Positions 29,819 through 30,253 of a stretch of DNA of 64,000 nucleotides are shown here, one piece after another. Where the stretch lies: positions 6,685-70,684 of the forward strand of contig JANNEP010000011.1 in the NCBI GenBank assembly GCA_031378895.1, in the 5' to 3' direction. The DNA is from Hyphomicrobium sp. Lineage in GTDB: Bacteria; Pseudomonadota; Alphaproteobacteria; Rhizobiales; Hyphomicrobiaceae. Numbering within the stretch: position 1 is the stretch's first letter; each line of letters opens with the position of its first letter. Made by a program: the position numbers and the translations under genes. The notes beneath the pieces were generated by a model, which saw only the letters and a list, made by a program, of their open reading frames with translations, ran no database searches and was not told where the DNA came from.

Positions 29819-30065
29819 TCACAACCGCTACTTCGCAAATGCGCGACCCGAACCCGATTTGAGATATTTCTCGAACGCGAATGCCTGTTTCTCGTCCGAA
29901 AAGGCAACGTAGGTTTTGACCGTCCAAGGAGCAAATTTGGTTGTGTTGGGATACTTCCAGCGCGTTGTGCTTCTTCAAACGCGCATCGACGTCATCCGTT
30001 ACGCCAGTATAAAAGCGGTCGGGAAAGCTGATGCTTTGAAGGATGCAAACAAATTTCAAGCGCAT
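29819..30065 (-). pseudogene. Small GIY-YIG nuclease pseudogene
   Basis: Removing 1 nt at ~29946 gives MRLKFVCILQS...RFYTGVTDDVDARLKKHN...SHTTKFAPWTVKTYVAFSDEKQAFAFEKYLKSGSGRAFAK*RL; in-frame TAG at 29828-29830. Confidence 0.85.
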
Positions 30066-30069
30066 GATA

Positions 30070-30177
30070 TGCGCCCGCCTGCGTTGCTGCGCAACTTCGG
30101 CGCGGCAGCCTCCGCGTCTCTGCGCGCTTTCATCCCGGCAATGGCTTGCCGAGCCGAAGCTCGCTAGAAGCGGAGGC
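30070..30177 (-). repeat. tRNA-3'-anchored multi-palindromic element
   Basis: GCCTCCGC/GCGGAGGC IR (30170-30177 with 30108-30115) interleaved with CTTCGGCTCGGCAAGCC/GGCTGCCGCGCCGAAG IR; begins at the base after CCA. Confidence 0.7.
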
Positions 30178-30253
30178 TGGTGGAGCCAAGCGGGATCGAA
30201 CCGCTGACCTCTTGCATGCCATGCAAGCGCTCTCCCAGCTGAGCTATGGCCCC
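30178..30253 (-). tRNA. tRNA-Ala(GGC)
   Basis: GGGGCCATAGCTCAGCTGGGAGAGCGCTTGCATGGCATGCAAGAGGTCAGCGGTTCGATCCCGCTTGGCTCCACCA, 76 nt. Confidence 0.98.

Follow-up and report, generated by a model that had tools for sequence, protein, structure and literature searches.

What is the palindromic stretch of 112 nucleotides (nt) that lies between a transfer RNA (tRNA) gene and a damaged gene for a GIY-YIG nuclease in a Hyphomicrobium genome from freshwater sediment, and do the three belong together? The locus is on the minus strand of a 64,000-nt stretch of contig JANNEP010000011.1 (assembly GCA_031378895.1), here called the window. An earlier note on this DNA had proposed a selfish, tRNA-targeted unit of repeat and nuclease. 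We find that repeat, gene and tRNA 3′ end do recur as a linked unit, and that the window holds, as judged by comparison with its relatives, a degenerate nuclease-bearing copy of a two-part element, consisting of a structured module and a 79-amino-acid (aa) GIY-YIG nuclease. The anatomy of this element is firm: a strand-specific structured repeat at the 3′ ends of tRNA and transfer-messenger RNA (tmRNA) genes, with one or a few copies per genome extended by the gene of a minimal Slx1-type nuclease, for which the repeat supplies the translation start. The module is 70–130 nt long and comprises a closing helix P1 (which includes the CA of the tRNA's CCA), a B hairpin and a second hairpin, P2. In the window the parts are:

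30178–30253, minus strand: tRNA-Ala(GGC) gene (ARAGORN; Rfam tRNA, 62.3 bits)
30066–30177, minus strand: structured palindromic element of 112 nt, a member of the tRNA/tmRNA 3′-end family (fold, covariance model, family covariation)
30170–30177, minus strand: P1 5′ arm, GCCTCCGC (family consensus GCCTTCGC), pairing with 30108–30115
30143–30160, minus strand: B module, GCTTCGGCTCGGCAAGCC, with a small hairpin GGCT...AGCC, near-invariant between phyla
30108–30115, minus strand: P1 3′ arm, GCGGAGGC (consensus GCGAAGGC), followed by an invariant TG
30073–30107, minus strand: P2 hairpin, with 5′ arm TGCCGCGCCGAAG, inner stem-loop TTGCGCAGCAA and 3′ arm CGCAGGCGGGC
29819–30065, minus strand: pseudogene of a 79–81-aa Slx1/UPF0213-type GIY-YIG nuclease (Pfam read-through match and homologs)
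30045–30047, minus strand: lesion 1, TGC (Cys) replacing the Tyr of the GIY motif (alignments of 37 homologs and 80 loci)
29957–29960, minus strand: lesion 2, a +1 frameshift, CTGG where homologs have one Gly codon (HNA-G-E/K) (three-frame translation, homologs)
29828–29830, minus strand: lesion 3, a premature TAG two codons ahead of the ancestral TGA at 29819–29821 (homologs end ...AFAK(K/R)RL-stop)

The spacer directly abuts the CCA, as the earlier note had it; its length is 112 nt and not the 108 nt or so given there, with 30177 as the first base after CCA, 30066 as the last, and the ATG of the gene at 30065–30063. It folds as a long imperfect hairpin followed by a second hairpin, with a free energy of −67.2 kcal/mol (z = −4.3), and none of 200 shuffled sequences was as stable. 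A covariance model built from 18 homologous spacers matched 30067–30180 with 82.6 bits on the minus strand, versus 27.9 bits on the plus strand. The structure extends into the tRNA, the terminal CA of tRNA-Ala(GGC) entering the outermost pair of P1, and within P1 a T>C change in the 5′ arm is compensated by A>G in the 3′ arm. In Rfam 15 the tRNA was the sole match in the window at E ≤ 1.

Reading the nuclease gene through its frameshift gave a Pfam GIY-YIG match of 42.6 bits (cut-off 22.6; E = 7.7e-11) and 60–76% identity to intact 79-aa homologs. All three lesions proposed earlier (Tyr to Cys, +1 frameshift and TAG near the old stop) were confirmed against these homologs, with one adjustment: the frameshift is at CTGG, 29960–29957, about 12 nt away from the position near 29946 first given for it. 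Frame 0 reads MRLKFVCILQSISFPDRFYTGVTDDVDARLKKHNA, and the +1 frame goes on as KYPNTTKFAPWTVKTYVAFSDEKQAFAFEKYLKSGSGRAFAK-stop-RL-stop. The GIY Tyr (Y5) is at least 90% conserved in 37 homologs and is Cys in the window copy, which by its catalytic motif, frameshift and early stop is not an active enzyme. The gene is a pseudogene, a family member by descent, and the window unit is a relic in which the gene is dead while the element, at 82.6 bits, is still typical.

This decay is also seen outside the assembly. Logan contigs from metagenome run X1 showed 0 differences to the window over 29600–30203 and carried the same lesions, and those from run X2 showed 2 single nucleotide polymorphisms (SNPs) and no indel over 29783–30079, with the frameshift kept; such a comparison of contigs from two runs does not reveal rare variants. 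Because independent contigs of two samples carry the same lesions, the lesions are not an artefact of one assembly. The SNPs of the X2 population, which is a related one, lie inside the pseudogene at 29897 (C>A) and 29936 (T>G, both on the plus strand).

Whether gene, repeat and tRNA are linked beyond this locus was examined with a protein scan over one genome per species, which yielded more than 531 relatives; the best 80 loci were analysed. In about 70 of the 80, an intact tRNA or tmRNA on the same strand ends 80–320 nt upstream of the nuclease gene. The remaining ten have a tRNA or tmRNA 3′ fragment, ending in ...CCA, directly before the element, which fits the far side of an island that entered the tRNA at a later time. 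In Rhizobium etli (L281:1289-3240; loci are referred to by L numbers), for instance, the order is phage-type integrase gene, tRNA-Ala 3′ fragment, two copies of the element, nuclease gene; the integrase gene lies between the displaced fragment and the place of the tRNA, and it appears that an integrase island was inserted into the tRNA, displacing the old 3′ end and the unit with it. With these fragment cases we count the linkage as 80 of 80. The element itself lies between CCA and gene in all 80 loci, and no gene without an element was seen in this sample, so that the proposal of a recurrent unit of repeat, GIY-YIG gene and tRNA 3′ end holds.

The unit is not tied to one tRNA or one group of bacteria. 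It follows tRNA-Ala (GGC and CGC), Ile, Arg (three anticodons), Val, Pro, Gln, Tyr, Ser, SeC, Lys, Asn, Met and Glu, with more than 14 anticodons overall, and tmRNA in five of the 80 loci. The hosts are Alphaproteobacteria, Acidobacteriota, Planctomycetota, Verrucomicrobiota, Lentisphaerota, Omnitrophota, Babeliales, Eremiobacterota and Bdellovibrionales; about 25 alphaproteobacterial loci have the common order aroA, tRNA-Ala(GGC), element, gene. Nearly all spacers begin with GCCTTCGC at CCA+1 and contain GCTWCGGCTCGGCARGCC (module B), a closing GCGAAGGC-TG and a P2 hairpin TGYCGCGCCGWAGC...GCGRAGGCGGRC. With the covariance model, an element ahead of the gene was detected in practically all loci; scores were 60–94 bits for the strand of the tRNA and about 25 bits for the opposite one. 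In Rfam the element was unmatched, the tRNA being the only hit in 8 related loci at E ≤ 0.1.

The element was also sought independently of any tRNA or gene, by scanning the same genome collection for the 18-nt motif at the P1/P2 junction, which gave at least 120 matches. Among the matches listed, 60 follow an intact tRNA or tmRNA on the same strand at a distance of no more than 400 nt, with all kinds of anticodon represented, and about 12 follow a tRNA 3′ fragment. The other 45 or so are mostly chance matches to coding sequence in high-GC genomes, with two or three that resemble P2-only remnants without a nearby tRNA end; a true, non-remnant copy away from a tRNA 3′ end was not seen in the motif sample. 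As a viral control, 2.9 million viral contigs gave 28 motif matches, all of them chance coding matches and none tRNA-linked. The nuclease gene follows only 12 of about 75 true elements among the matches listed, a ratio of solo to gene-linked copies of about 5:1. The palindrome is therefore not a mere leader of the gene, as had first been assumed. The element does often occur without the gene, but it stays tied to tRNA and tmRNA 3′ ends.

Solo copies have one of two arrangements, either with module B inside P1, as in the window, or with a simple P1 hairpin and P2 followed by module B ('type II'). They are complete, often of type II, and carry no gene remnants; some have a T-run after P2. Two element copies can occur within single genomes (L023/L130; L082 and L135; L089 and L124), and tandem arrays exist, L041:2430-2990 having about 7 repeats of a short form of about 73 nt between a tmRNA 3′ fragment and the nuclease gene. 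At a tRNA-Leu(TAG) locus (L166) the elements are repeated and preceded by CCCCGGCAGGG instead of CCA, possibly a sub-lineage that left the tRNA end.

The proposed helices were assessed with 93 distinct elements aligned to the covariance model. Standard pairs make up 98% of the cells and 10 of 22 pairs show compensatory changes, values reached by none of 500 shuffles, although an alignment fitted to the model inflates these covariation figures somewhat. Sliding the pairing partners lowers pairing to 33–50%, and an independent MAFFT/RNAalifold analysis gave the same helices. Covarying pairs in P2 include one with U-A 47 / C-G 41 and one with C-G 74 / U-A 18; a further covarying pair has U-A 58 / C-G 23 / G-C 5. 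At the tRNA boundary, the outermost P1 pair joins the A of CCA to a T in 92 of 93 elements, and covariation is also seen at the base that follows CCA, which with its partner forms G-C, T-A or A-T. The pairs of the B hairpin are kept in 97%, one of them being U-G in 27 of 93 elements, and many local loops are C(UUCG)G. Because of these U-G pairs and C(UUCG)G loops, the folded strand is taken to be the tRNA-sense strand, as RNA or as single-stranded DNA. A candidate helix between the B module and the P1/P2 junction, which would have made the earlier note's 'interleaved' repeats a conserved feature, was rejected: the two are near reverse complements, but their variable W positions do not covary (TT/AA 20, TT/TA 19, TA/AA 15, TA/TA 10).

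In the variant lineages L056, L060, L064 and the group of L220, the three post-CCA bases change together with two other places, in the B hairpin (5′ arm) and where P1 ends, and recur reverse-complemented in both. Simple secondary structure does not explain this parallel three-base change; it hints at a recognition site common to these places, or at a copy of the junction inside the element. A second lineage occurs at the tRNA-Ala(GGC)/aroA site (L220, L236, L246, L271), in which the element starts with CGCTTCGC and has the B module GCTACGCGTGGCGCAGCC; the CGCTTCGC-type module goes with a protein only 55–60% identical to the main type. Module and protein lineages change together.

Module and gene are also joined at the level of expression signals. 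The P2 3′ arm, GRAGGCGGRC, ends no more than 12 nt ahead of the start codon in 38 of 61 loci and contains GGAGG or GAAGG; in the window it holds a Shine-Dalgarno-like purine run 7 nt ahead of the ATG. No promoter-like site was found in the window spacer, and terminator-like matches there were at chance level. Several copies lie within runs of tRNA genes. L023:2798-3671 has the order tRNA-Tyr, element, nuclease gene, tRNA-Gly, solo element, tRNA-Trp, its two element copies being 95% identical over 82 nt with the variable segment in common; L073, like L023, has the gene-bearing unit between tRNA-Tyr and tRNA-Gly, and in L177 tRNA-Gly and tuf enclose a solo copy. From the strict same-strand order, the lack of a promoter-like site in the spacer, the tRNA-operon positions and the ribosome-binding site embedded in the element, we infer that the unit may be co-transcribed with its tRNA, as the earlier note suggested; within tRNA operons the element is almost certainly transcribed with the tRNAs and would not be a strong terminator there. 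Runs labelled 'RNA?' at the R. tropici locus had flat depth across intergenic DNA and contigs of 95–166 kb, and look like DNA. A GIY-YIG gene of S. meliloti, SM2011_RS15670, is reported to be leaderless, and the leader of an alternative longer transcript abolished reporter expression (PMC13285730); occlusion of the ribosome-binding site by P2 would fit this if that gene were a member of the 79-aa family.

How mobile the unit is was approached from the aroA site. About 64 loci with syntenic aroA and tRNA-Ala(GGC) were collected on the basis of AroA, and the comparison of filled and empty sites called for earlier shows patchy occupancy: about 9 of the 64 are occupied or have remnants, and the nearest relatives of the window (L201-L204, L206) have empty sites with unrelated sequence after the tRNA. 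These empty sites do not mark the 3′ boundary of the unit, as synteny with the relatives is lost at the tRNA and cstA does not follow it there. L229, L253 and L266 carry remnants; in L229 a truncated element is joined directly to the downstream gene, and so the nuclease gene was deleted there. Decay is not confined to the window, about 10% of the 80 genes being broken.

Exchange among tRNAs and between phyla is evident from several comparisons. In Acidobacteriota, proteins 80–87% identical lie behind Ile, Arg, Val and Ala tRNAs and tmRNA, and cross-phylum protein identities reach 75–80%. Solo elements behind tRNA-Gly(CCC) in an alphaproteobacterial metagenome-assembled genome (MAG; L120) and behind tRNA-Ser(GCT) in a betaproteobacterial MAG (L159) share 96.6% identity over 87 nt, with the stems that usually vary included. 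Element copies lie on both sides of the gene in L007, L008, L012, L014, L022, L045 and L077; in two of these the direct repeats around the gene are 100% identical (120 nt in L022:2872-3391 and 133 nt in L077:2837-3380), as if a unit of gene and element had recently recombined with a solo element. A T-run comes after the second copy in L077. Of the 80 loci, L020:3240-3260 (= L183) alone has a clear att-like duplication, a 17-nt exact copy of the tRNA-Ala(CGC) 3′ end (TCCCCTGCCGTCCACCA) that lies 2 nt after the nuclease stop. The protein was absent from the plasmid, phage and viral collections searched.

The nuclease belongs to a large family. A protein-cluster search gave at least 2,544 clusters at 90% identity, and the best matches listed are nearly all 79 aa long; such names as they bear are generic ('putative endonuclease', 'predicted GIY-YIG superfamily endonuclease', 'GIY-YIG nuclease family protein'), and all of at least 120 homologs listed carry PF01541. 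NCBIfam, PHROGs and PADLOC gave no specific family, an intact homolog being unmatched; the window read-through had one marginal PADLOC match (13.9 bits, E = 0.005). In an alignment of 37 proteins, 23 positions are invariant, among them Y17, G19, R27 and E63, and 22 more are nearly so. The 79-aa protein is catalytic core throughout and has no DNA-binding domain. By sequence, the nearest solved structures are UPF0213 BH0048 (1zg2, E = 3e-4) and, weakly, Slx1. An AlphaFold2 model of homolog P0001 had a predicted local distance difference test (pLDDT) score of 96, and its top Foldseek matches were 1zg2 (UPF0213 BH0048), 7wme (At-HIGLE, a Holliday-junction resolvase of Arabidopsis) and 6seh/7cq3 (Slx1), with template modelling (TM) scores of 0.70–0.74, root-mean-square deviations of 1.6–2.2 Å and 31–34% identity; I-TevI ranked 20 and UvrC 35. 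The predicted fold is therefore closest to Slx1/HIGLE/UPF0213, and the protein matches the 'prokaryotic Slx1-like, minimal GIY-YIG' group of the general phylogenomic survey of GIY-YIG proteins by Dunin-Horkawicz et al. (PMC1564403). The unit shares sequence, fold and minimal catalytic core with these Slx1/At-HIGLE/UPF0213 proteins (COG2827, YhbQ-like). They differ in being regarded as repair or recombination enzymes, for which a link to tRNA ends or a cognate repeat is unreported in open-access literature, and a partner like Slx4 is not evident here.

Purifying selection on intact genes is strong: the ratio of nonsynonymous to synonymous substitution rates (dN/dS), taken within groups of Bradyrhizobium-like and of acidobacterial sequences, is 0.055–0.07, at a synonymous rate (dS) of 1.6–1.9. 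Of the earlier proposal of a tRNA-targeted selfish unit, the linked unit is borne out by the 80 of 80 linkage and its selfishness stays putative, since this low ratio, with saturated dS at one syntenic site within genera, fits a long-resident constrained gene better than a short-lived homing endonuclease.

We tentatively propose, at a little short of even chances, that repeat and nuclease may be partners in a system analogous to the repetitive extragenic palindromes (REPs), their hairpin-forming doublets (REPINs) and the REP-associated tyrosine transposases (RAYTs), built on a different enzyme and aimed at tRNA 3′ ends. We favour partnership because the gene was not seen without the repeat in the 80 loci, the pair is unusually conserved across phyla, their lineages change jointly, they have moved among tRNAs and taxa, and relatives of the enzyme recognise branched nucleic acid. 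As in the REP/REPIN-RAYT case, short palindromic hairpin repeats are dispersed in intergenic DNA, the enzyme gene lies beside and sometimes between its cognate repeats (here L007, L008, L022, L077), non-coding copies greatly exceed the coding one (counted here across genomes), and the enzyme gene is long-resident, under purifying selection and patchily distributed. The differences are that a 79-aa hydrolytic GIY-YIG enzyme of Slx1 type takes the place of an HUH Y1 transposase, so that covalent strand transfer is not expected, and that the copies are fused in one orientation to the CCA of tRNA or tmRNA, whereas REPs are scattered after ordinary genes.

On this proposal the gene would lack its own promoter and depend on transcripts that start at the tRNA promoter and continue into it, and P2 would keep translation of the nuclease low. 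The nuclease would act in trans, recognising a branched or hairpin nucleic acid formed by the module beside the acceptor end, a step suggested by likeness to its structural relatives, which recognise branched DNA; recognition of structure would explain how 79 residues find any tRNA gene end. A cut at the module might then drive or maintain copying to other tRNA 3′ ends via host recombination, and the gene could pass between module copies by homologous recombination. A more specific version, which we think distinctly unlikely, is that the nuclease responds to structure instead of sequence, recognises the junction of tRNA-like acceptor end and P1 and cuts exactly between CCA and the following base N. 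Such a junction could arise in the displaced non-template strand of a heavily transcribed tRNA gene, or in pre-tRNA, and the unit would then be a structure-guided, tRNA-end-targeting mobile element of an undescribed kind.

Several points weigh against the partnership. A GIY-YIG nuclease is incapable of strand transfer, so that host repair would be needed for any spread. An ordinary host gene, too, could show saturated dS and very low dN/dS at one syntenic site. Selection on RNA, or on a single DNA strand, is indicated by the G-U pairs and UUCG loops, which suit a role at the RNA level no less than one at the DNA level. Finally, no close pair of empty and filled genomes was found that delimits an inserted solo unit.

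What else could join a tRNA end, a hairpin and a nuclease? The protein might be a free-standing homing endonuclease that cuts unoccupied tRNA 3′ flanks, with the tRNA gene as homing site and homology arm and the solo palindromes as leftovers. This is unlikely in our estimation. The patchy orthologous tRNA-Ala sites, the pseudogenes, remnants such as L229 and the 17-nt tRNA-end duplicate in L020 are what it would leave, the tRNA would provide a conserved anchor, and there is a precedent in phage T4 SegB, a GIY-YIG homing endonuclease in a tRNA gene cluster (PMC2330249), which shares with our unit a gene among or beside tRNA genes, patchy presence and degenerating copies. The unit differs from SegB, however, in being chromosomal and strongly constrained, in lacking a DNA-binding domain, in having a Slx1/HIGLE/UPF0213 fold (I-TevI reaching only rank 20, behind structure-specific nucleases) and in having a conserved structured repeat that is also found alone. 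Moreover, the solo copies are complete, often of type II and free of gene remnants, which is not expected of leftovers; a dN/dS near 0.06 with saturated dS at one site within genera also counts against it; and for homing between different tRNAs there is no homology downstream of the tRNA. A second rival is a system at the RNA level, to which we likewise give a smallish chance. Here the module would be a pre-tRNA 3′ trailer affecting processing, stability, termination or the downstream gene, and the protein would act on that RNA or be controlled by it; at the extreme, trailer-bearing tRNAs would depend on the protein for 3′ maturation. The strict same-strand start at CCA+1, the G-U pairs (27 of 93 at one position), the C(UUCG)G loops, the far higher model score on the tRNA strand, the Shine-Dalgarno-like run inside P2 and the element's place inside tRNA operons all agree with an RNA function, even though no Rfam family matched, and the fusion of a prokaryotic Slx1-like domain to a TrmH-type tRNA methyltransferase has been taken as a hint of involvement in RNA metabolism (PMC1564403). 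The S. meliloti leader would agree as well if its gene were of the same family. By itself, an RNA role leaves the spread over many tRNAs, the cross-phylum exchange and the perfect DNA repeats unexplained. To our knowledge, all characterised GIY-YIG enzymes cut DNA, which also counts against it.

The association could, at the other end, be a coincidence of an ordinary DNA-repair gene parked behind tRNAs and a palindrome that serves as an unrelated, lineage-independent tRNA terminator or processing signal. Strong purifying selection, long residence at the aroA/tRNA-Ala site and the T-run after P2 in some solo copies would be in keeping with this, and among the three small COG2827 genes noted in Caulobacter, proposed as repair nucleases, one is SOS-regulated (PMC1839093). 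We disfavour it as very unlikely: linkage in 80 of 80 loci over phyla and more than 14 tRNA identities, a start codon fused to P2 and the parallel change of module and protein lineages are hard to reconcile with chance, and independent terminators would not be expected to share a near-identical module across phyla. A toxin-antitoxin or defence module, in which a repeated structured RNA neutralises a nuclease toxin as in type III systems, is extremely improbable. In its favour, a small nuclease gene is immediately preceded by structured RNA, which may be repeated in tandem (about 7 times in L041), and a hairpin separates RNA and gene; PADLOC had no match for an intact homolog, however, the protein was not on the plasmids or phages searched, and neither the solo copies at many tRNAs nor the obligatory fusion to CCA would be explained.

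Known mobile elements at tRNA genes resemble the unit only in part. Like integrase islands, it targets the 3′ ends of many tRNA and tmRNA genes, with displaced tRNA 3′ fragments nearby; it differs in having no integrase, a size of 0.1–0.5 kb, a direct repeat of the tRNA end only in L020/L183 and an element that starts right after CCA, whereas islands replace the 3′ part of the tRNA. With IS200/IS605 elements it shares structured strand-specific ends, a fixed sequence at the left (here ...CCA) and a single orientation, but it has no TnpA or TnpB and a different chemistry, and the CCA is always a tRNA end and not any CCA. No description of a linkage of tRNA end, repeat and GIY-YIG gene was found in the open-access literature, where absence is not proof, and the earlier note's statement that it knew of none is in line with this.

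If the partner proposal is right, many soil and freshwater bacteria (among them Bradyrhizobium, Rhizobium, Acidobacteriota and Verrucomicrobiota) carry a uniform structured sequence at tRNA or tmRNA ends together with a dedicated mini-nuclease; annotation labels the protein only as 'GIY-YIG nuclease family protein' and overlooks the repeat. The large, function-less prokaryotic Slx1/UPF0213 family would gain a concrete, testable substrate, and the REPIN/RAYT-like pattern of repeat plus cognate enzyme a second enzyme class. The proposal would also bear on the evolution of tRNA 3′ flanks and on the maturation of pre-tRNAs with strongly structured trailers. Were the RNA version of the CCA cutter true, no earlier GIY-YIG enzyme would be known to act on RNA, and trailer-bearing tRNAs would be dependent on the nuclease, an addiction mechanism. 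The module offers a clean covariance-model marker and accounts for a class of small pseudogenes beside tRNAs.

In the window, the neighbours of the unit are cstA, a FYDLN_acid gene and aroA, and the AroA protein is 70–77% identical to those of its nearest relatives, several of which are Hyphomicrobiaceae or Hyphomicrobium MAGs. No integrase gene was found among these neighbours, and no duplicate of the tRNA 3′ end, exact or with 1–2 mismatches, within 4 kb downstream; the earlier note had correctly set the locus apart from integrase islands on these two grounds. A second copy of the element or of the gene was not found in the 64-kb window. The only other tRNA there, tRNA-Leu(CAG) at 20460–20545, has no element downstream. 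The 166 nt from pseudogene to cstA (29653–29818), which are not part of the family element, contain GC-rich inverted repeats without a T-run, one example being GGCTGCGC TCC GCGCAGCC near 29765–29783.

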